Source of the DNA: Ionaspis alba
Taxonomy: Eukaryota
Reading direction: 5' to 3'
Assembly (NCBI GenBank): GCA_964255285.1
Contig: CAXUUL010000054.1
Coordinates: 1 to 44,254, forward strand
DNA length: 44,254 nucleotides
A program made the translations under genes and the position numbers. The first letter of the stretch is position 1, and each line of letters opens with the position of its first letter. Positions 3,555-43,003 of the stretch are shown here, one piece after another. The notes under the pieces were generated by a model. The model did no database searches. It was not told the origin of the DNA and worked only from the letters and a program-made list of their open reading frames with translations.

Positions 3555-4450
3555 TTACTCGATATAGCCATCTTCCCTCCAGACCCCGCTCCGACCACCT
3601 TCTTTCTTCACAACCCTCACACTCTCGATCCGGCATCCACGATCGACCCCTTTACACATATCCACAACTGTCAGTGCGGCGCCCAATACAGCCGTCAATG
3701 CTTCCATCTCCACCCCGGTCTTGCCATGACATTGTACTCTTGTCTCAATTCTGACGCCTCCAAAGACACCAATAGGCTGATCCTTGTCCCGTAATTTGGC
3801 TTTCTGGTTGCTGCCTCCGCTGTTCTTAGCCTCTGCTTCTGCGGTTTTGGTACCAGCCATATCGTGCCTCTCCAGCTTGTTCACCATGTTGGCACTCTTG
3901 CTGCAAGCATATTCACTATCAGTCTCCTTTCCACCGACCAAGTCTACCAGAATTTTTACACCCTCAATTCCGATCCCACTATGACAAAGCGGAACCCAAT
4001 CTGCTGTCTTTTTGGCGGCCATGATACCTGCCACACGTGCCACAGCCAGGACATCACCCTTGCGGAGGCTGTTGAAACGGATCAAACTGTACGGGGAGGC
4101 ATTGGAGAAGATGACGTGCCCCACTGCGGTGGCAGTACGGTGGGTGGGGGCTTTATCTGAGATAGGAATGACATGGATTTCGGAAGTAGACGTTAGGTGT
4201 GGCAGAGAAGAGGGCTTGGAGACTGGAGATGTTGCGCTAGTGGACCGTTCGGATCGGCTGGGAGCGCTTGATGAAAAGGTGCGACCGAAGCGCTGACTCG
4301 GTGTGACTGAAGGAAGGAGATAAGCTGGGATAAATGTTTGGAGTCGTCCTTGCCCACAATGTGGAGTCGAGATCAGCTGTTGTAGAGCATTGGTGGAACG
4401 GACTAAGCTGCTCAGAGGTGGCCATCTTGCCATAGACAGAGGCACGTCAT
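3555..4450 (-). CDS. moaC: MoaC/MOCS1B cyclic pyranopterin monophosphate synthase domain (second half of MOCS1/cnxABC-type locus)
   Basis: KGDVLAVARVAGIMAAKKTADWVPLCH, GKTGVEMEALTAV, VVDMCKGVD, VVKKEGGRSG motifs. Frame is joined to MoaA by intron 4580-4451; an in-frame ATG is present at 4433. Confidence 0.93.
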
Positions 4451-4572
4451 CTACAATACTTGGGTAAGTAAATTTTTCACCGAATATTTGCCTTAGTGAC
4501 AATGAAAATAGGGTGGAATGGTGGGACGTGGGTTCTAATTTCATTCCAGTGGTCTCAGTCAATATGCAAAAC

Positions 4573-5898
4573 TTACCCACCAATTAAGATCATGGGCCGA
4601 TTCTTCATATTCTCCAGCTCTCCCATTCCAGCATGCTTCTCCTTTTTCCTTTTCACAGCCAATCCGATGACTTCCAGAAGCTCTCTTTCTTGTTGAGCCT
4701 TCTCCGACAAGCTTGTGCTTCCTGGCAAAGCCAGCGGCCTGTCCATCTCCACTCTCTTCATGGCTTTCAACGCTTCTTCGTCAATGGGCTCTCCGCCATT
4801 GTACTTCCTCAGCAAGTCCCGAAGGCTGACCTCCGTATTTCCAAATAGACAGACTTTCAGGTTACCATCACTCGTAATTCGTAATCGATTGCATGTTCCG
4901 CAGAAGTTCTCCGTCATACTGGTGATAAATCCAATCTTCCCCACAAATCCAGGAATCTCGTATGTCTTACTAGTCTCGTGCTTACCGTCCTTTACTTTCC
5001 TGACACCTGGATATTTGGTTCTTATCAAGCCGAGCATCTCCTCATAGCCCATCATCTTCCCCTTGCTCCATTTGTTCCCGTCAAACGGCATATACTCGAT
5101 GAATCTTACCTCCACCTCTCTCTCTTTTCCCAGATCCACAAATGGCAAGATCTCGCGCTCGTTGACTCCCCTCATAACAACGCAATTGATCTTCAGCTTT
5201 ATGCCTGCCCCGAGACGATTCATCTCAAGTATTCGCTCGATACTCTTCATTACAGCTTCGAACCCCTTTCTCCTCGTCATAATCTGGAACTGAAATGGGT
5301 CAAGTGTGTCAAGACTCAGATTCACGCCCGTCAATCCTGCCTCGACCATACTGTCCAGCTTCCTATGAAGTGCAATCCCATTCGTGGTAAGACACAGCTC
5401 TTTCAGCCCATTCCGGCGAAGGTCTCCGATGCTGTGCATCAAGGGCAATATGTCGCGGCGTATGGTAGGTTCTCCGCCTGTCAATCGGATCTTGGTGACG
5501 CCTTGAGAGACGAAAAGAGAGGAAATGTAGATTATTTCGGGGGTGGTGAGAAGGTGGGCTGGTGGCGAGAGTGGCACACCTTCTTCGGGCATGCAGTACA
5601 AACACCGAAGATTGCAGCGCTCGGTTATGCTGATGCGGAGGTAGTCGTGCTGGCGAGAGTAGTTGTCGGTGAGGAAGGCAGAAAAGGGTTTGGCGTTCCG
5701 GAGGTCCGTTCTTCGAGAAGATGATGGAACTGTATGCTGTGTATATGGCGCAGGGGCAATATGTACATCGTGAGATGGTTGTGCTGCCGCTGCAGCGCCA
5801 ACAATTCCCCGAATGCGGGGATGAACATGATTAGGATAATGGCAGCTTTGGACAGTCTGGCTGAATCGACCTAGGAGCCGTATGCCTGAAGAAGTCAT
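4573..5898 (-). CDS. moaA: MoaA/MOCS1A GTP 3',8-cyclase (radical SAM) with mitochondrial-type N-terminus
   Basis: [17 protein letters not shown] (CxxxCxxC), [17 protein letters not shown] second cluster motif, C-terminal RPMILIGG*. First ATG in frame at 5898 ([14 protein letters not shown]). Confidence 0.96.
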
Positions 5899-6325
5899 GA
5901 CAAAGGAAAAGACCACAGGGTTGACTATGTATACTAAGCATGATGGTATGTTAGGCAAATGAAAGGAAGAATTATACTCCTCTGAGGTTAGTTAGTCCTG
6001 TCAGTTTTCGTCGGTTGAGGTGTCACCGATAAGAGATCATTTAGCGGATAGCCTGCGGGGAGATCGCCCACTAGAACCATTGGACCTTAACGGTTCAACC
6101 CCGCCGAACTCCTGGACGGGTGTGTTTGTCGACGCCACTCATTGCGATTATCAGCCTTGTCACTATGAGCGCTGTCTCTCAGCCTCGCAGGCGACACCGC
6201 CTTGAAGGTGGGTCTGGGTCTTCCGTACCTGATTTGAGTCAGTCTCTGCATATCAGGACCGATGTACATGTGCTCCGTCTCTGGTCAGGGTACATGTCAG
6301 AGAGTTCCAGCGCACCTAATTCGTC

Positions 6326-8718
6326 ATGTCGTTTGGTTTCGCTGTGGGCGACATACTCGCCGTCAGCAGCTTTGCTTGGACTCTTTACCGCAGCTGCAAA
6401 GGTGCTTCCAGCGAATTCGAGGAAGTCAGTCGTGAGGTGATTACTCTGCACACCACAATCAAAGAACTGGAGGAAGACGCGAGAAATCCAGACTCGCTAC
6501 TCAATCGTGAAGGAACAGGCAGGAAGTCGGAGATTGAAAGTCTCCTGCGAAGTTGCATGACTGTACTTCGGGAATTGCAACGTCTAGTGAACAGATACAA
6601 GAGCCTCGGGACGAACCACAAAAGAGCTTGGGACAGAGTCAAGTTTGGTACGGAAGGTATCCAAAGCATCCGAGAAAAGCTCACATTTCACACCGCTTCT
6701 ATCACGCTGTTCCTGACGAGCTTGGGAACGAGTGCATTAGGTAGAATTGAGAAAAAGCTCGACGGATTGGTGGCAGAGATTAGAGCTGGGAAAAGAGAAC
6801 CTTCAATCCTTACACTCGGGGAAGAAGACGATGACGCGGATGACGATTCTATTTGGCGGACTTTAAAGAGCGATCTGGCAGAAGATGGCTTTACGAAACA
6901 GGAGATAGAACAGCACAAATCTGATATAATAAGCTATTTGAGGGCTTTGGTACAAGATGTAGATCTTGAAGAGCGCGGAGGGGGTCCTGGATACGAGAAG
7001 AAATCCGAAGTCAAAAACACGGTGGCAGCATCACCACATCAACCACCAGCACCATCAGCTGAGACTGTGTATAGTGATTCCGGAAAGGAGAGCGGCGTGT
7101 CTGGGATACATAGTGTGAAGAGCATCCCACTTGATACAGACGAAGACAGTCATCCAATCCAGGGACCCTCTGTGGACCAGAATGTCACAAAGGATCGATC
7201 AGGTTCGCCTTATTATGAGGAAACTCCGAAGAAAGAAAACGATGGGCACAAGATTTCTCCAAGCATTGCTCCCAACCATGCTTCCTTTACAGAAGACTAC
7301 CTCCGATCGTCTATGTCTCGACCTTGGGAGGTACGAAAGACAAGCAAGTACGCCCAAGACCGTTTTCTGTATCATCAGTCCAAAGACTCCTCCACATCGG
7401 GCTCAAATCACTCGTCCGAGTGTTCTCCGGGCCCTATAAAAAGAAAGCAAACTAGATCACCGAAATTGAAACCCGCACCAGCATCAATGAAACGTGCAGC
7501 GACAACCCCCTTTTTTCGACGACGCGCCGCGGTTCCACAACCAGATAGAAAGGAGCTGCAACTCGACTCAAAGCAAAAAGGAATCAACATACCTTATCCT
7601 AGAACCTTCCGCAGATCATCGGACGAACCTCGGATGCCCATTATAGATCAATATTCCAGTAATGCAAGCCGTGATGATGAATCCGTCATTAGATCTCTTT
7701 CAAACAAAAATAAAGGCAAATTCGATGCAGAGGATGAGCTTGGACAATTATTTGCAGAGGGCAGTTCGCGTTTCCGATGCTTCCCTGCGCCTTACGATTT
7801 CCTACCATTAGGAATTATTACGAAGCAACCAAGATCTGAACAAACATGGTCGATATGGGCTGTTGAGAACGACGAAGTGACGGGACTCGGATCTTTGTCT
7901 TCCTCGTTGGATTTTGAAACTCAGCACGCCAAATCTTATATAATAACTTCTAGGAATGCTCCGTTTCCTCAAAGAAACGATGGCGATTCCGGTAACCTTC
8001 AATCCGAAGGCTACTTCGATTTCACGCTTGGCAATACCGATGTCTTTACTGAGCACAATCGCGGCAAACCCAATGGATCGAAGCCCATCGATCACAACAT
8101 GAACGGCAGGATAAGACCAGAAGACCGTGAAATCCTCACAATAGAAAAGCCTCTACTGATGACACTTGAAGAACTCTATGCGGGGAAAACGAAAAAAATG
8201 AAAGTTACCCGAAGAATTATCGACGCCGTGTCTGGACAGAAGGAGTTTGAAGAAAAGGTGGTGGTGATGGATATCAAACCGGGGTACCACGCCGGAACAA
8301 AGATAAAGTTCAGGGGATTGGGTGACGAGGATGGGGAAAGCGTGCAAGATATCCACTTCATAGTTTCTGAGGTCAACTATCCTACGCGCAATAACAGCTT
8401 CATTGATACTGATATCGTCGACAGAAAGAACACCCAGTCTTTCAGCGTCAAGGCAACGATCTCAGAACACTTCTAACAATTCCCTTGAAAGAGGCATTGA
8501 CCAGCTGGACGCGCACTATCTCGACAATTGACGGAGAACAGCAGACCATATCTCGTGCGGGTCCGACCCCACCTGGTTATGAGATCCGGTTGCCCAATAA
8601 AGGGATGCCGATCAGTAAGGACCTACCACGGAGAGGTGATATGATTTTGGAGGTGAATGTTGAATTTCCTACCACGCTCACGCCAAAGCAGAAGTCCACC
8701 TTTGCGGAAATGCTATGA
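6326..8718 (+). CDS. HeLo-like (Helo_like_N) domain fused to Sis1-type Hsp40 C-terminal (DnaJ_C) domain, no J domain; ~779 aa
   Basis: N-terminus MSFGFAVGDILAVSSFAWTLYRSCK..WDRVKFG is typical of fungal HeLo-like domains. C-terminus PLLMTLEELYAG..IKPGYHAGTKIKFRGLGD..DIHFIVSE|KEHPVFQRQGNDL..LKEAL..GMPISK..RGDMILEVNVEFP spans GT-AG intron 8372-8424. Confidence 0.85.
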
Positions 8719-8885
8719 TCGCCCTTTGGCTACATCACGAACGTTATCGATTGATGTAAAATGCAAGCGATATAGTACTGCATACCAGCTGTAGAATGGT
8801 AAATATATACAAAGAATCTCGCCTTCGATCCGTCGTGACGCTTCATCATAATATCGTGAGTGAGAGTGCACGGTATGCCAATTCC

Positions 8886-20595: not shown

Positions 20596-22113
20596 CTAGA
20601 CTACTTCAACGCATAGTCCACCATGGTGAAACTTTCGTCTGTGGAAATCTAGATTGTCTCTCGTGTAGATTTCGGCGCAACCAGGTGCGAGACACGCATA
20701 TAGGATTGCGGAAGTAGCGTATGTGGTGTAGGAGACCTTCGAATATTCTTCATCGAAATCGGGGTTTGTGGTGTTGAAGAACGACAGATCCTCCACCGTG
20801 GGAGGAGGGGGTGGATGGGTCTTTTTCGCACGAACACAAACCCTAACATTTCTAAATAAGGCGATGTCTTCGTCAACGAGGTGGTCATTGCTACCATCCT
20901 GGTTGTCGAAGATCTGCTCCGTGTCAATTCTCAACTGTCCTAGCGGGGCTTGGTCGCCATCTGGTACAGGGGAAGCCACTGCTTTGGCTTTTCTGGTAGG
21001 CTCGACAAACCACACCCTGCAGCGAGAACTAAAGCCAAAGTTAGTGCTCCATAAGAAGTTTCTCGTTTGGACGGATGGCCTCCGTTGGAATTGGGCGTAC
21101 CACGTGTAGCCCCCACCCATTGCCGCACTGAATGTTTCCGATACACATTGAGGCATGGGACAACGTTCTTGAGAATTGAACTCTTGCCCCACGATGGCTG
21201 CCATCTTGATATGCGCTCCTGGTAGGAAGCCCGCCCACTGCTCATTCGTGATCGATGAAGCCGCGTTTCTGACGTCGAAGAGTTCATATTGCTTGGCGAG
21301 AACCAAACGATGACCGGGACCGCTCCGGAACTGGTCTCTGATAATGGCTGTGACCATACCGTAGTTGTATTCGGATGGGATTGGTAGGACACGACCTAGC
21401 GCATCTTCGAACTTTACAGGCTCTTGAAACCAGGTAAACCTGTGATCTGGAGGAGGTAGTCGGGTTTGCGTGTGAAGCACGATATCTTGGATTTGGAGAT
21501 TCGACTGCAAAATATGGTTGGCAAGATCGAGAAAACTGTTAAGCTGGGAAGCTATATTGATGTTAAGAGTCTGGGAGAACTGGGAGAGAAACAACTGTTG
21601 GCTCTGCAGCAACGCTGATTGAGTTTCTTCGATTCTCTTGACAAGATCATTCCGGTCTTGAGCTGACTGATCCGCAGCCATGGTCAACATTTCTAGACCA
21701 TGAGCCATCAACATCATGTTGATGCTTCCAATGTGTATATTTAGATAATTCCGCAGCTTCAAGGCCTCGTCCTTCTTGGAGAGGCCCCATCGTATTTTTG
21801 TCTCCAGGTTCGAGATCTTGCCTCTTGACGGACCCAATCCGAGGCTTGCTTCGTACTTCTTGATCTTGGTGAGAAACTCAGCTAATGGATGTTTGCACAT
21901 CAGAGCAGCACATTTGATGGCATTGATCGCCGGCTCTTGGTCTCCACCAAGCGGAACCTTGAGCTTGTCGACATGTTGCAAAGCTCGCTGAAGGTTTCCT
22001 AGTTCACGGAGGAGTTCCTGATACTCGGCTGGCGAGTCACGAAGGGTGGCGACGACATCCGTAATGAGTCTCCCCACGGAAATGAAATCACTAACTGAAA
22101 AGCCAAACGACAT
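20596..22113 (-). CDS. HeLo-like N-terminal domain + fungal ubiquitin-like domain + Zn ribbon + C-terminal C2H2-like finger
   Basis: MSFGFSVSDFISVGRL.. N-terminus; WFQEPVKFEDALGRVLPIP..GPGHRLV..YELFD..FLPGAHIKM ubiquitin-like block; CPMPQC..GYTC|SRC after removing 72-nt GTACGC..CTAAC..TAG intron 21100-21029; terminal CLAPGC..HRRKFH. Confidence 0.8.
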   Translation of the reverse strand: MSFGFSVSDFISVGRLITDVVATLRDSPAEYQELLRELGNLQRALQHVDKLKVPLGGDQEPAINAIKCAALMCKHPLAEFLTKIKKYEASLGLGPSRGKISNLETKIRWGLSKKDEALKLRNYLNIHIGSINMMLMAHGLEMLTMAADQSAQDRNDLVKRIEETQSALLQSQQLFLSQFSQTLNINIASQLNSFLDLANHILQSNLQIQDIVLHTQTRLPPPDHRFTWFQEPVKFEDALGRVLPIPSEYNYGMVTAIIRDQFRSGPGHRLVLAKQYELFDVRNAASSITNEQWAGFLPGAHIKMAAIVGQEFNSQERCPMPQCVSETFSAAMGGGYTWYAQFQRRPSVQTRNFLWSTNFGFSSRCRVWFVEPTRKAKAVASPVPDGDQAPLGQLRIDTEQIFDNQDGSNDHLVDEDIALFRNVRVCVRAKKTHPPPPPTVEDLSFFNTTNPDFDEEYSKVSYTTYATSAILYACLAPGCAEIYTRDNLDFHRRKFHHGGLCVEVV

Positions 22114-39412: not shown

Positions 39413-41380
39413 TTATCCCACAATATACTGATTTCGCCTGAGGACTATAGCTTTGCCATCCTCTTCTATCCCACGGCAGCCATGAAGGCTCCTTTTTTCA
39501 GCGATTCGCCATGTGCCTTCCGGCGCATCAGGAACCGGTTCGAGCGTCCACATCCTTGCGAGTGTGCTGCACACAGAACTAGCTAGAGCTGCTGGCACAG
39601 CGAATATATGATTAGGAGAAGCTGGGAGCTGAGATGCTATCGTAATGGCCTTATTGTTAGCTGTGACACCTAAGGTATGCCATATCGGTTCGCGGCGGAG
39701 CTCCAGGAGGGGCAGTGCCCTGTACTTTATTGAAAAGACAAGGTAGTTTAGGAGTTGGTTTTTGAGGCTTAAGAGATCCGCTATCTCGAGATCTTGGGCG
39801 GCGTGGTCCTGAAATAGATGGTTGAGCGCAGTAGACCAGAGAGGATCACATTTAGCGATCGAGGCAGTGGAAAGCGGCTCCACGTTCGAGGTTGCAATCT
39901 CCTTCCAAGCATTCGCCATCCATGGGATCCCACTTTCGATAGCACAAGCCAGGACTTTGATGTTTCGCTCGTAATAGGTATGGAACATCTCTGTGCTGCG
40001 ATCAAGAGACACGAAGAAGCCGTCAATCATGTTCAGGAGGTCTTCATGTTGCTCAAAGCACTGTTGCATGAAATTTCTCGCTTTGCTAAGGGACTGAGGA
40101 TTTGGAAGGTGTTGGTCGCTATGATACGTGTAGAGATCCAAACAAATCCTAGAAGGCTCTAGGATTGATACCTGTGTGTTCAGTGGAAGTCTCGGATGCA
40201 TTGCGACTAGCGTGCCGATATCAGCTCCATCAAGCCAGTGAAGCCAAGATCTCGTTTGGAATGGAGGATCCAAAGCAAGCTTGGGCCCAGTCATACAGAG
40301 CATGGAGGCGTCCCCTGCAGCAAAAGCAAGGACCAATAAGATCCACTGCGATCGGTGAAAACTCTCCGCCTGCCCCTCGAAATATAGACCAAGATGAGAT
40401 AAGTTGAGGGCAATCGAAATACGGTCGCTCAGGAGAGAAGATTCCAGAGTCATAAATTGTGGGAAGAGCCGCATGAGAGGTTCAACAAACGTCGGACGTT
40501 CTGAAGGACGGTTGGAGGATTGCGACGAATCCTTGACAATCACTGTCATGATTTGAATCATTGAATACAGCTTTTTCCATGTTTCCTCATCGCCACGATA
40601 GCCGCGAATAGCTAGCATGAAAAAGTATGCGAGCTGTTCTGTTTCCATAGCGACGACATGCTTGCTCGTGGGAATGAGAATGATAGAGTCCTTGCTGAAA
40701 ATGTATTCCTGGATGCACCAAGCTCTTGTAAACCATCTTGCAGAAAAGATCTTCAGGAGAAGATTGACGATCAGGACAATCTCTTCGTCCTTAGGGTGCG
40801 ACCATTCTGGCCGGCTATCAGGGACCTTATGCTCGGTGATGAGGACATCCTCGTACCCCTCCAATAGAATATCTTCAAGGACGATGACGACGAGGCGGGC
40901 ACTTCTGTAGATGATATCCATGGATGCTACGGCAAGGACTTTTTCATCGACATCCTCCTGGTTGATGCACTCGGCATCGATCCAGACACCCTCGGCGTCT
41001 GATCTTCGCAGATCGAATAGACTTTGCAGCATAATGAACGAAATAGGCCAAACATAGCCATCGTGCCTGTGCTGGTGGAATCCTGGAGCTGGACTCCAGT
41101 CATCACTGTGCCAACAATAGCTCAGGGCGATGAAGGATGTAAACAACTTCGCTGTAGGCACTGGAGACTCCCTGTCCATAATCAAGATCCTCAGGGGAGT
41201 TTCGAACCCGATGTTTTCTTTCAATTGAAATTGACTAGCAACAACAGGATCTATTTGCCTCAATCGAGCTAAGACCGTGGAAGGCTCGGTATCTGGAGGA
41301 CGGGAGGCATTGATAGCATCCTGTAGAAGTAGAAGCTTGTTTTCTTCTGTGACCGTGCAACGGTAAATCGAAGAGGGCAT
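39413..41380 (-). CDS. HET-domain (heterokaryon incompatibility, PF06985-type) protein, 655 aa, intronless
   Basis: FIALSYCW, VWIDAECINQED..EK..AVASMDIIYRSARLVVIVL and RWFTRAWCIQE are the characteristic HET blocks. Confidence 0.9.
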   Translation of the reverse strand: MPSSIYRCTVTEENKLLLLQDAINASRPPDTEPSTVLARLRQIDPVVASQFQLKENIGFETPLRILIMDRESPVPTAKLFTSFIALSYCWHSDDWSPAPGFHQHRHDGYVWPISFIMLQSLFDLRRSDAEGVWIDAECINQEDVDEKVLAVASMDIIYRSARLVVIVLEDILLEGYEDVLITEHKVPDSRPEWSHPKDEEIVLIVNLLLKIFSARWFTRAWCIQEYIFSKDSIILIPTSKHVVAMETEQLAYFFMLAIRGYRGDEETWKKLYSMIQIMTVIVKDSSQSSNRPSERPTFVEPLMRLFPQFMTLESSLLSDRISIALNLSHLGLYFEGQAESFHRSQWILLVLAFAAGDASMLCMTGPKLALDPPFQTRSWLHWLDGADIGTLVAMHPRLPLNTQVSILEPSRICLDLYTYHSDQHLPNPQSLSKARNFMQQCFEQHEDLLNMIDGFFVSLDRSTEMFHTYYERNIKVLACAIESGIPWMANAWKEIATSNVEPLSTASIAKCDPLWSTALNHLFQDHAAQDLEIADLLSLKNQLLNYLVFSIKYRALPLLELRREPIWHTLGVTANNKAITIASQLPASPNHIFAVPAALASSVCSTLARMWTLEPVPDAPEGTWRIAEKRSLHGCRGIEEDGKAIVLRRNQYIVG

Positions 41381-43003
41381 ATCGCAAGCTCACTTAAGTT
41401 CAAGAAATACCGTGGCCTTGCGATGATCAGATTGCGAAAACTCGACTTGAGGTTTTGACTTGGTGTTATCACTTCATGTTAGGAGGGAGGCAGCTGTTCC
41501 GATGAGGCCAGCTGAGGCAGAATCCTAGAGGGATCGTACATGCTTCTCCCAATCACATGACTGTTCATCCGATAGGACGAGGCAGATTTCCAGACCTTCA
41601 GGCCAGAAGCTCTCGTAAGAGTATGAGGCATAAGTCATCTCCAAGTCCCTGGTCTTGTTATCAACCATGAACCGCTGGTTACAGAACATAGGTCATAACA
41701 TTGAGCATTTCAAAACGATCGTTATTACCATTGTTCAGACACTTAATAATGATACTTTAAGATTACTCGCAACATGTTGTTGATGATCAAAATGGAATAA
41801 TGAGGTAGACCACGAGAGGAGATTGCCAAGCCGGAACGAAGGACTAAGAATTCTTAGCGGTGTCCAATAATGGCTGAGACTACATTCACTTACCACGCTA
41901 GCCTGGAGTGTAGAGTAGGAATTCTGCAACAGCTACTCTGATACGCCAGATGGCAGGTTTGGCAGGTTGGAAGGTTGTTCAACTATGCTCCAACGACGAT
42001 GAACAAGGCGAAGATCGAGACGAAACACAAACGGGGGCTTCTCAGACGCAACCCGGAGGCGAACCGCCCATTAAGGTGAAACTTGCAATTCTGCGCAATG
42101 CAAATTGCTGTCGTGGCATTGGAGATTCAACGGTAGGGACGAGTATGCAAGCTTCTGTGGAGCGGCTGGCTTAAATTCAGTTGGGAGAGATGTTCGGGTC
42201 AACACAAGATACCACGACTCTTGCAAGGGCAGATAGACGACACGACGAGTACACACGCGCGGACTATCAATAATAATGTCTCCTCCACTATCATTATCCC
42301 ATAATACAGATCCGTCGCGGAATGGAGTTTCGGTCTATGATTCGGCATTCAAGGCCGAAGATGCGACACGCAAGCTCCGAAAGCGCATTAACCAGTTCCA
42401 GCTGGCGCCATCCTGCTCACTGCTGCCCTCTGCTGCACTCCCTGGCGCTCGGTGTCCCCTTCAGCGAATGACGGGCCGCTGCTGGGTGGCAAAGGCGCTG
42501 TTGATTGGATGAGACAGTGACTAAGCAGGGTCATGGAGGGTTGCTGCGCAATACAACGTCACACTAGGCGAAGAGGACGGTGCGGGCTGTGCTGCAGTCT
42601 GGGACCTGCTGGGCTGCTCTGCCAAGGTCCTTTCCGCTCTCCCTTCTGTCAAGTCTCAATCTTCTTCTGTTCTTCATCCGACAACGACTGCACTGACGAC
42701 TCCCTTCATCTGATCATTTCAAGATTCCTGTCCCTCCAAGGCATTCAAGTCTTTTGTCATTCTCGACATTGACAATCATTGCCACCGGCTCAGTACAGAA
42801 CAAATCATTCTACCACCCAAGCGACCGAGAAGCCTATTCATAGCTCAACGGTCCAATTTTAACCCTACCGTCCGACCGAATCCCCAGGCAGCAACGAGAA
42901 CGTTGTCGACCATCTCGACCACGAACTCCATCAACATCCTGAGGTTCCTTGATTACAGACTTCTCCATCTTACACGCAGCATTGCGTGGACTCTTTCTCA
43001 ACC

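Follow-up and report, generated by a model that had tools for sequence, protein, structure and literature searches.

Helical bundles of the HeLo, MLKL and CC kind puncture membranes in fungi, plants and animals, and HELLP kills through membrane targeting. A kinase is considered to be the trigger of MLKL, and NLRs or amyloid templating those of HeLo-like bundles. In class B proteins, a helix of the G/F region holds the output domain, which is released when the EEVD of Hsp70 docks on CTD-I. In passages of the fungal NLR literature, PF17111 is treated as a pore-forming HeLo-like family and a short helix between helices 3 and 4 is described as a feature of HeLo-like domains (PMC9815663). The substrate-binding domain of HSP70 binds the N-terminal domain of MLKL and promotes MLKL polymerisation in the absence of ATP (PMC7469681). 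A search of the literature found no description of a HeLo-like domain fused to an Hsp40 or Hsp70 part. In passages of two fungal NLR papers (PMC4986451, PMC12258605), "chaperone" refers to HSP90 co-chaperones and BCS1 and not to such a fusion; the words Hsp70, DnaJ and chaperone are absent from PMC9815663, which concerns PF17111. Both building blocks of the gene described here are well known, and it is their joining that was not found described within this search.

The window, the whole 44,254-nt stretch of Ionaspis alba DNA that was analysed, contains a two-exon gene on the + strand (6326-8718) with a spliced product of 779 aa and a single terminal stop (Table 1). From the N- to the C-terminus, the protein consists of an N-terminal module (N-module) of ~218 aa, a linker of ~340 aa, a degraded G/F motif, and Sis1-type CTD-I and CTD-II with their tail. 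A PF17111-related bundle on a long flexible linker thereby stands in place of the J domain of a class B Hsp40 and of most of its G/F region. The original prediction of a single frame leading from a HeLo-like-type N-terminal bundle via a long linker to a Sis1-like CTD agrees with the two-exon gene, the AlphaFold2 model and the Pfam matches.

Table 1. Features of the fusion gene; positions are those of the window
Feature	Residues (aa)	Position	Strand	Remarks
Exon 1		6326-8371	+	starts with ATG
N-module, predicted four-helix bundle	1-153	6326..6784	+	AlphaFold2 model; sub-threshold PF17111 match
N-module, helical extension	154-218	6785..6979	+	conserved; phmmer relatives, AlphaFold2 helices
Linker, Ser/Pro/Lys-rich	219-560	6980..8005	+	open frame, low identity to P0002
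G/F-region remnant	561-596	8006..8113	+	contains YFDFTLGNTDVFTEH, aa 563-577 (8012-8056)
CTD-I	597-682	8114..8371	+	Pfam DnaJ_C, E 3.4e-8
Intron		8372-8424	+	53 nt, phase 0, GTCAAC...GACAG
Exon 2		8425-8715, stop codon 8716-8718	+	frame differs from exon 1
CTD-II	683-762	8425..8664	+	Pfam DnaJ_C, E 2.3e-16
C-terminal tail FPTTLTPKQKSTFAEML and stop	763-779	8665..8718	+	FPTTLTPKQKSTFAEML coded by 8665-8715; aligns to canonical tail FPtsLta.QK.kLkeIL

A conserved fungal fusion gene without a J domain

The fusion is one real, conserved gene of a fungus, probably a lichen-forming Lecanoromycete, with its gene structure, domain identities and J-domain loss established. The reading frame has no stops over 682 codons, of which 342 belong to the linker. 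The unspliced ATG ORF, 6326..8476, would give 716 aa, lacking CTD-II, and runs through the GT...AG intron, whose donor GTCAAC is non-consensus. Contigs from two sequencing runs retain the intron and represent DNA. The 53-nt intron and the single-transcript structure of the fusion gene are predicted by homology. It is noted that a GT-AG intron (phase 0, 50-85 nt) lies at the junction between HF[IV]VxE and KxHP in 55 of the 56 split loci among 80 canonical metagenome loci (the remainder being 23 contiguous and 1 partial). The window intron, following IVSE, occupies the same position, which answers a check on Sis1-type genes proposed with the original prediction, and the junction is also found in P0006, a fusion relative with a spliced NCBI gene model. 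Since this intron position is common to canonical Sis1-type genes, the chaperone half was copied from the genomic gene of a class B J-protein. Within the 80 metagenome loci, a J domain lies upstream in 61 and an N-module in none, so the scan of this set revealed no fusion locus.

The DnaJ_C family (PF01556) is matched by aa 607-680 of exon 1 over profile positions 2-70 and by aa 1-82 of exon 2 over positions 73-152 (E-values in Table 1), and the two halves thus abut at the splice junction. When compared to a canonical C-terminal profile built from 111 canonical class B C-termini, aa 597-779 align to positions 4-185 of 185 (215 bits, E 6e-67) with one 1-residue insertion. CTD-I and CTD-II are complete as aligned, with no frameshift or stop, and the complete Sis1-like CTD pair with the tail FPTTLTPKQKSTFAEML expected from the original prediction is present. 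Sequence matches of CTD-I in the PDB are DNAJB13, DNAJB1 and Sis1. The window CTD is 45-53% identical to the 111 canonical class B proteins and keeps 69 of the 108 columns (64%) with a conservation of 90% or more among canonical genes, the canonical minimum being 84%. Non-neutral evolution of the CTD, on which the original prediction also depended, is indicated by the comparison with the closest relative, P0002, in which CTD-I is 53% identical to that of the window and the linker 28-31%.

Neither the HPD tripeptide nor a match to the J domain PF00226 at E<=1 is found in the window protein, and positions 1-171 of the canonical profile (J domain and G/F region) have no match in the six frames of the 44-kb window, in line with the predicted lack of both. 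Without a J domain or HPD, the protein is by definition not a J-domain protein and cannot stimulate the Hsp70 ATPase. As for Hsp70 docking, the Lys-Lys-x-Lys motif TKKMKV (aa 622-627, 8189-8206) is retained at EEVD site II and aligns to TKKMKI of DNAJB1. At EEVD site I, one of the two lysines is kept, K659 being equivalent to K217 and H655 to K213 in the presumed DNAJB1 numbering. K181, K182 and K184 of DNAJB1 are named as contacts of the Hsp70 EEVD in passages of PMC11722011. The CTD may still dock the EEVD tail of Hsp70, and it may also dimerise through its own tail, as judged from the sequence.

The linker is rich in serine, proline and lysine (51, 31 and 25 of its 342 residues, respectively) and contains no Pfam family above cut-off. 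The predicted G/F remnant with YFDFTLGNTDVFTEH is indeed present, but in a degraded form. GGFSFSNPExIFxEFLRG occupies the equivalent position in most fusion relatives and in the consensus of canonical class B proteins, whereas the window copy (aa 562-580) is degraded, and the canonical class B profile aligns to the window protein only from aa 577 onward. This profile covers the G/F motif in 6 of the 17 other fusion relatives (P0002, P0006, P0023, P0086, P0126 and P0140), but not in the window.

The N-terminal module

The N-module starts with the family N-terminal motif MSFGFAVGD. Its AlphaFold2 model, based on a 53-sequence alignment (pLDDT 88.1, pTM 0.78), places bundle helices at aa 7-24, 29-53, 58-93, 99-105 (short) and 110-153, and extension helices at aa 159-165, 173-186, 191-196 and 198-218. 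We are confident in the four-helix-bundle fold as modelled, which lies at the very N-terminus of the protein and has the short helix between helices 3 and 4. The HeLo-like N-terminus had been expected to span aa 1-155; the bundle stands, but the boundary does not, because the conserved module extends to ~aa 218. Relatives found by phmmer match aa 1-217 as a single unit, and W177 in the extension is near-invariant among the aligned relatives. A match of aa 191-206, within this extension, to TubC_N is well under the cut-off (E 0.14, 12.7 vs 26 bits).

M1, S2, G4 and D9 are near-invariant among N-module relatives, and aa 2-20 form the most hydrophobic 19-mer in the entire 779-aa protein. Among 176 relatives scanned, 115 have a match that begins within N-module profile positions 1-5, and 102 of these 115 begin no more than 5 residues from the protein start. 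With 86% identity to P0002, the N-module is, in sequence comparison, the most conserved section of the protein.

The match of aa 10-133 to PF17111 (PigL_N in Pfam, formerly HeLo-like) scores 15.3 bits (E 0.013), below the gathering cut-off of 27.2 bits, and the N-module is therefore termed PF17111-related rather than a Pfam-level member. Four of the 176 relatives pass the cut-off, namely P0099 (31.1 bits), P0108 (28.2), P0165 (29.3) and P0169 (27.2), and the window N-module matches them in phmmer with E-values of 5.5e-42, 3.4e-38, 2.0e-32 and 3.7e-32, respectively, so that its homology to proteins passing the PF17111 cut-off is significant at the sequence level. A PF17111 match is listed in 38 of the 176 relatives (limit E 0.01 in the first 80 and 1e-4 in the remaining 96), extending as far as profile position 197 of 209 in P0030. 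More widely, 2231 N-module relatives are found at E<=1e-3, and the closest ESM Atlas clusters carry PF17111 or SesA, with PF17111 in 13-95% of their members.

A Foldseek search of the N-module against the PDB gave no match at E<=0.001, and unrelated helical bundles match the modelled fold at least as well as MLKL and plant CC domains do. It should be mentioned that a HET-s/HeLo chain is absent from the fold match lists, which is not evidence against relatedness. The N-module alignment profile matched only designed proteins and chance entries among PDB sequences.

Relatives and sister fusions

The combination of N-module and DnaJ_C is present in 18 of the 176 family proteins scanned, i.e. in 17 cluster representatives besides the window protein. 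Alignment of these fusion relatives to the canonical profile starts no earlier than the G/F region, and the J domain is never covered. Another 20 of the 176 join the N-module to HSP70, one of them (P0049) also with BAG. Examples are P0017 and P0022 of Endocarpon pusillum and P0008 of Circinaria calcarea, for which the source names are limited to "hypothetical", "Hsp70 protein" and "Fungal N-terminal domain-containing". The N-modules nearest to that of the window are those fused to a degenerate Hsp70, and the N-modules of these sister fusions are 47-58% identical to the window N-module. Their Hsp70-like partner comprises the nucleotide-binding domain and part of the substrate-binding domain. 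In P0008, GIDINFDYC is aligned to GIDLGTTYS of Kar2 and DVRIDGCD to DLGGGTFD, two stretches of Kar2 that we take to be phosphate-binding loops. Named relatives belong to the lichen-forming Endocarpon and Circinaria, plus one Leotiomycete (Phlyctema).

In a FastTree phylogeny of the N-module (154 rows), all 20 HSP70 rows fall in a single clade (support 99), to which the clade of the window is sister (86), and a 45-row clade (support 80) contains all 20 HSP70 rows together with 11 of the 13 DnaJ_C rows. In the wider family, the N-module is joined to ankyrin repeats, G-alpha, PAH, Myb, bZIP, C2H2, KA1 and a ubiquitin-like domain. At the E-value limits applied (0.01 in the first 80 and 1e-4 in the remaining 96), the 176 relatives are free of NACHT and NB-ARC matches; no NLR-type domain is seen in the 20 longest window ORFs, and inspection by eye of the tails of 28 short relatives reveals no obvious amyloid motif. 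The setting in which fungal HeLo-like executioners usually occur is therefore absent from this material.

The fused CTDs evolve much faster than canonical ones, with an end branch of 1.79 vs a median of 0.13. A tree of CTD-I only (87 columns, 54 rows) gave no resolution. In the full-CTD tree, made with 42 of 82 distinct rows (P0098 and P0127, which are too divergent, and CTD-I-only fragments were left out), the CTDs of the window and P0006 are apart, with a 100/100 branch between them, and are joined in 0 of 200 bootstrap trees. Each is nearer to the canonical genes of its own fungal class. However, an AU test with the two CTDs held together gave an lnL difference of 8.05 and p 0.245, which is not rejected. 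A single origin is thus allowed, and for this reason we no longer claim that the fused CTDs arose independently or through gene conversion.

Possible function and known systems

The original prediction proposed a sensor-executioner or an integrated decoy. The sister fusions to Hsp70-like and BAG lend this proposal indirect support; it is weakened by the modelled fold, which matches MLKL and CC domains no better than unrelated bundles, and by the relatives, with no NACHT/NB-ARC, no obvious amyloid motif, and DNA-binding and other partners in the wider family. Considering these observations, the best explanation appears to be that the output of the N-module is coupled to Hsp70 docked on the J-less class B CTD, a reading that we hold tentatively, at a little short of an even chance. 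The CTD pair would dimerise through the tail and dock the EEVD tail of cytosolic Hsp70, and CTD-I may also hold misfolded or amyloid clients. Hsp70 ATP hydrolysis would not be triggered by a protein lacking the J domain, so that the fusion protein would act as a docking platform and not as a co-chaperone. Docking could bring Hsp70 beside the N-module, or the N-module onto Hsp70-decorated aggregates. As the output, the N-module, once freed or crowded, would self-associate, and its hydrophobic first helix could engage the membrane in a manner modelled on HeLo/HELL, MLKL and plant CC domains; membrane killing by the N-module would follow by analogy with these proteins. Because an Hsp40 CTD, BAG and an Hsp70-like domain share only Hsp70, bringing Hsp70 next to the bundle is favoured over an aggregate sensor alone.

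It is also conceivable, if unlikely, that the control logic of class B proteins has been kept with an MLKL-like executioner in place of the J domain, such that engagement of Hsp70, or its exhaustion on aggregates or prions, gates membrane permeabilisation. If this is true, the fusion, together with the pseudo-Hsp70 and BAG sister fusions, would point to an old, conserved coupling of four-helix-bundle executioners to Hsp70, of which the animal HSP70-MLKL interaction would be another remnant.

The N-module may instead be a helical targeting or partner-binding domain rather than a pore former, in a scaffold or regulator that does not kill. We regard this as doubtful but possible, and the same applies to its variants: a J-less holdase, a tether that keeps Hsp70 or its clients parked at an organelle or membrane, or a subunit that pairs with canonical Sis1 via the tail and tunes it. 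The generic four-helix-bundle fold, the now neutral name PigL_N of PF17111, the kept tail consensus of canonical Sis1-type proteins and the lack of an NLR or amyloid context (176 relatives, 20 longest window ORFs, 28 tails) are all compatible with a non-lethal role. Furthermore, the partners Myb, bZIP, C2H2, PAH, G-alpha, ankyrin and KA1 would fit a killer no better than a module with a general role in regulation or targeting, and these, with the ubiquitin-like domain, are odd partners for a killer. However, a near-invariant, strictly terminal N-terminus and a most hydrophobic first helix are traits of bundles that act through the first helix, the N-module is far better conserved than the chaperone half, and PF17111 is treated as pore-forming HeLo-like in passages of the fungal NLR literature (PMC9815663).

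A decoy or guard, in which crippled chaperone parts mimic the host chaperones attacked by a virus, prion, toxin or competitor effector and act as bait, so that binding of the attacker fires the N-module, seems improbable to us. Both chaperone partners do look inactivated, through the J domain lost in the window and the altered phosphate-loop motifs of P0008, and the fast evolution of the fused CTDs (end branch 1.79 vs canonical median 0.13) would suit a bait, but it also fits relaxed constraint. Similarly, the closeness of the window and P0006 CTDs to canonical genes of their own classes could suggest renewal from the host gene, which is unsupported as the AU test (p 0.245) does not reject a single origin. 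The DnaJ_C forms have no nucleotide-binding switch domain, and we know of no attacker that targets the chaperone parts of the fusion, which also counts against a decoy. That two neighbouring genes were read as one, or that the gene is a decaying pseudogene, is very improbable. The non-consensus donor, the degraded G/F motif and a transcript structure that rests on homology would be in keeping with such an artefact. Against it stand the open frame of 682 codons, including the 342 of the linker, the same architecture in 17 other cluster representatives, including the spliced model of P0006, and a CTD that runs end-to-end without frameshift or stop, with CTD-I conserved well above the linker.

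If a bundle is indeed wired to parts of the Hsp70 machine, this would be a new type of trigger, linking folding stress, prions or chaperone attack directly to membrane damage. From the three different Hsp70-system partners it can be argued, in "Rosetta stone" fashion, that bundle and Hsp70 act together, an argument in keeping with the part that HSP70 is reported to play in MLKL polymerisation. The fusion also shows how a J-protein can lose its J domain and serve anew as a docking module. Any connection with lichens and lichen stress tolerance is no more than a thought.

We have compared the fusion protein to the known systems that it most resembles. Similar to HeLo-like/HELL proteins (PF17111, e.g. 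HELLP), it has a strictly N-terminal bundle, in which the first helix is hydrophobic and a short helix sits between helices 3 and 4. In contrast to HELLP-type proteins, it has no C-terminal amyloid motif, its PF17111 score is sub-threshold and its partner is a chaperone fragment; no neighbouring NLR is found among the 20 longest window ORFs, nor NACHT/NB-ARC in the 176 relatives. The similarity of the N-module to MLKL and the plant RPW8/CC domains (NRG1, NRC2, Rx) is no better than its similarity to unrelated bundles. With class B proteins (Sis1, S. pombe Psi1, DNAJB1), the window protein shares CTD-I, CTD-II and the tail end to end, the intron position, the Lys-Lys-x-Lys motif and a degraded G/F remnant; it differs in lacking the J domain and HPD, in keeping 64% of near-invariant columns and in its long branch. 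The Hsp70-like and BAG+Hsp70 (P0049) sister fusions have an N-module, a linker and an Hsp70-system part in the same order as the window protein, the partner being an Hsp70-like domain with altered phosphate-loop motifs in the sister fusions and an Hsp40 CTD in the window.

A J-less class B chaperone half

The 779-residue window protein ends in the C-terminal half of a Sis1-like Hsp40. A profile was made from the C-terminal 185 residues of 111 canonical proteins carrying both a J domain and DnaJ_C, and its positions 4-185 align to the window protein, apart from a single 1-residue insertion (E 6e-67, 215 bits), bearing out the complete CTD-I/CTD-II and tail of the original prediction. The tail, FPTTLTPKQKSTFAEML, is alignable to the canonical tail consensus. 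The absence of a J domain, also predicted, holds: the Pfam search gave no PF00226 match in the window protein, the 779-residue product contains no HPD tripeptide, and positions 1-171 of the canonical profile, which cover the J domain and G/F region, found zero matches across six frames of the whole window. None of the fusion relatives aligns the J-domain part of the canonical profile. In P0002 (the closest relative), P0006 (Phlyctema vagabunda), P0023, P0086, P0126 and P0140 the alignment starts at the G/F consensus, GGGFSFSNPESIFAEFLRG; the G/F remnant predicted for the window protein is present as a degraded copy only, GYFDFTLGNTDVFTEHNRG. In DNAJB6, helix V of the corresponding region blocks the J-domain face that binds Hsp70, as described in a passage of PMC10624832.

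The closest solved structures by sequence are Cryptosporidium Hsp40, DNAJB13, DNAJB1 and Sis1. At EEVD site I, one of the two lysines is presumably retained (K659), the other being H655. In CTD-I, TKKMKV pairs with TKKMKI of DNAJB1 in the alignment; passages of PMC11722011 give the site II EEVD contacts as K181, K182 and K184 in DNAJB1 and K199, K202 and K214 in Sis1, and state that the triple mutant of the latter loses binding to both EEVD and alpha-synuclein.

A single frame had been predicted through both halves. The 682 codons to IVSE are indeed continuous, but the last part lies in another frame after an intron, which was found directly after IVSE as anticipated. The spliced translation has one stop, at its end. 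Since the DnaJ_C profile is divided between the exons (see table), the two pieces join at the splice junction. At +5 the donor does not have the customary G, and the putative splice leans on homology, which is strong. In X1, a DNA sequencing run covering part of the window, a second 220-base contig (depth 33.7 versus 105.3) carries 14 differences, five of them coding at the end of CTD-II (N760K, E762K, T766E and one silent) and nine in the 3' untranslated region; it is a second allele or strain.

Features of the window and of its encoded proteins
Feature	Position	Strand	Details
ATG-started ORF	6326-8476	+	716 aa; final 34 codons are intron read-through
Intron	8372-8424	+	53 nt, GTCAAC...GACAG; after ...IHFIVSE, GAG codon at 8369-8371
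Coding part after intron	from 8425; stop 8716-8718	+	different frame, KEHPVFQRQGNDL... up to FAEML
G/F remnant	aa 562-580	+	
Canonical C-terminal profile	aa 597-779	+	
DnaJ_C (PF01556), exon 1	aa 607-680	+	profile 2-70, E 3.4e-8
DnaJ_C, exon 2	aa 1-82 of exon 2	+	profile 73-152, E 2.3e-16
TKKMKV	aa 622-627	+	
Linker island	7781-7807 and nearby	+	
X1 second contig	8628-8847		
MoaC-like and MoaA-like ORFs	3555-4583 and 4573-5991	-	abutting
P0417, second bundle gene	20596-22113	-	505 aa
ULD_2 (PF22893) in P0417	aa 230-308	-	E 6.1e-11
HET-domain ORF	39413-41389	-	E 8.7e-20

Origin and constraint of the fused CTD

Eighty loci were retrieved from metagenome contigs by searching with the CTD-II alignment. 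A J-domain match lies upstream in 61 of them and an N-module in none of the 80, so these are canonical genes. Fifty-six are split at profile position ~88/89, 23 are contiguous (many on transcript-sized contigs) and one is partial. In 55/56 split loci the interruption is a phase-0 GT-AG intron, 50-85 nt long (median 59), at ...HF[IV]VxE|KxHP..., the CTD-I/CTD-II boundary in canonical Sis1-type genes of filamentous fungi. This junction is the window's own, with four canonical loci identical at HFIVSE|KEHPLFK, and the NCBI gene model of P0006 is spliced there as well. The shared junction, whose comparison the original prediction had proposed, shows that the ancestor of the fused CTD was a class B gene copied in its genomic form. 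The intron is missing from L031, L039, L059, L060, L071 and L073, six loci whose contigs measure between 6 kb and 2 Mb. Many metagenome-called fusion proteins stop a few residues past ...EEV, which is read-through into GT. P0216, P0256 and other short entries (218-235 aa, DnaJ_C only, NCBI name "HSP40/DnaJ peptide-binding protein") could represent either truncated gene models or J-less CTDs that exist on their own.

Among 108 near-invariant columns, each at least 90% conserved across the 111 canonical proteins, the window protein retains 69 (64%) and P0006 80/106 (75%), against at least 84% (median 99%) for the canonical proteins themselves. The end branches of the fused CTDs are 1.79 and 1.30 versus a median of 0.13. 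The window protein and P0002 are 86% identical across the N-module; for CTD-I the value is 53%, and for the linker 28-31%. Together, these values show a CTD under selection, not neutral, in line with the original prediction, and more loosely held than canonical Sis1; the N-module is the most constrained part. The window CTD shares 55% identity with the canonical sequences closest to it, but just 40% with the P0006 CTD. In a careful CTD tree, a 100/100 branch lies between the two fused CTDs, which were joined in 0/200 bootstrap trees. A single origin is nevertheless not rejected by the AU test (p 0.245), and the fusion may have arisen once or several times. Short linker islands are common to the window protein and P0002, e.g. 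FPAPYDFLP versus FPRPYDFML, and a basic stretch, PIKRKQTRSPKLKP...KRAA, resembles a nuclear localisation signal.

The N-module and its partners

With aa 1-220 as the query and 1.84 billion representatives as the target, phmmer found 2231 relatives at E<=1e-3, of which 1282 reach 1e-10 and 167 reach 1e-30, with matches spanning aa 1-217 as a single unit. The module is strictly N-terminal: of 176 family proteins scanned, 115 match from the profile start, and in 102 of these it begins within the first five residues, with the family motif M-S-F-G-F-x-x-G-D. PF17111, called "HeLo-like" in fungal NLR literature according to a passage of PMC9815663, scores below threshold in the window protein (15.3 vs 27.2 bits); among the 176 relatives its cut-off is passed by 4 and the family is listed for 38. 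Some relatives show weak SesA or Rx_N matches, and the closest ESM Atlas clusters are PF17111 or SesA. The AlphaFold2 model (53 sequences; pLDDT 88.1, pTM 0.78) has four long helices, with a short one separating helices 3 and 4, and then a small helical extension that reaches aa 218. The predicted HeLo-like N-terminus is therefore supported by PF17111-linked relatives and a four-helix model, but its own score is sub-threshold and the unit extends well past the ~155 residues proposed. All fold-search matches, executioner bundles included, fell under the level informative for helical bundles; the modelled fold is compatible with executioner bundles and is no proof of kinship.

In the Pfam scan of the 176 proteins, where some matches are below Pfam cut-offs, partners are HSP70 (20), DnaJ_C (18, all confirmed with the canonical C-terminal profile), ankyrin repeats (10), PAH (4), C2H2 (3), KA1 (2), and G-alpha, Myb, bZIP and SH3 (1 each), with NACHT or NB-ARC in 0/176. 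Among the 150 matches listed in an N-module-only search, DnaJ_C occurs in 15 and HSP70 in 9. In a FastTree of 154 N-modules, with moderate supports, every one of the 20 HSP70 rows falls in a single clade (support 99), sister to the window's clade (support 86); a 45-row clade (support 80) holds 20/20 HSP70 and 11/13 DnaJ_C rows. HSP70-fused relatives are found as P0007-P0022, P0044, P0045, P0049, P0069 and P0176, and P0049 additionally has a BAG domain (aa 299-372) ahead of its Hsp70 part. In P0117 the N-module is fused with an entire G-protein alpha subunit (PF00503, aa 309-636, E 2.3e-69). For the Hsp70 part of P0008 (Circinaria calcarea), the alignment with Kar2/Hsc70 covers the nucleotide-binding domain and continues into the substrate-binding domain. 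At residue level, viewed in P0008 only, GIDINFDYC and DVRIDGCD stand against GIDLGTTYS and DLGGGTFD of Kar2, in what we take to be phosphate-binding loops. Given the lost J domain and these altered motifs, both chaperone partner types look like binding modules rather than working enzymes.

The neighbour genes are ordinary (Gtr1/RagA, MoaC, MoaA, BTB protein, kinase, Argonaute, HET-domain protein), and MoaA shares 76-82% identity with proteins assigned to Xylographa, Trapelia, Lambiella and Circinaria, which makes a Lecanoromycete the probable source of the window. Since some named relatives hold MoaC and MoaA within one ~700-745-aa protein, the two abutting ORFs are possibly a single spliced gene. 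The HET (heterokaryon incompatibility) domain is cell-death-type and lies 30 kb off. P0417 starts MSFGFSVSDF, matches N-module profile positions 1-136 (E 1.1e-11) and carries a ubiquitin-like domain; by sequence it holds a paralogue of the bundle, joined to a further kind of partner.

Possible modes of action

BAG binds the Hsp70 nucleotide-binding domain, and Hsp70 is all that an Hsp40 CTD, BAG and an Hsp70-like domain share. Read most simply, bundles of this N-module clade would work beside Hsp70. The J-less CTD could serve as a dimeric dock that binds the Hsp70 tail and clients and would be unable to drive the Hsp70 cycle, with the N-module as output, acting through its invariant, hydrophobic first helix once freed or crowded. 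That this output is scaffolding or regulation instead of killing carries substantial weight, since the fold is generic, the NLR/amyloid context is missing (the window's 20 longest ORFs hold no NLR-type domain, and the tails of 28 short relatives, read by eye, no obvious amyloid motif) and the wider N-module family includes DNA-binding partners. Some weight also goes to a decoy role.

The fusion proteins are already in public databases under automatic names; among the papers searched, none was found that describes the fusion of a HeLo-like domain with parts of Hsp40, Hsp70 or BAG. For a bundle working beside Hsp70 there is a precedent in MLKL, whose N-terminal domain is stimulated to polymerise, independently of ATP, by the substrate-binding domain of HSP70 (PMC7469681).
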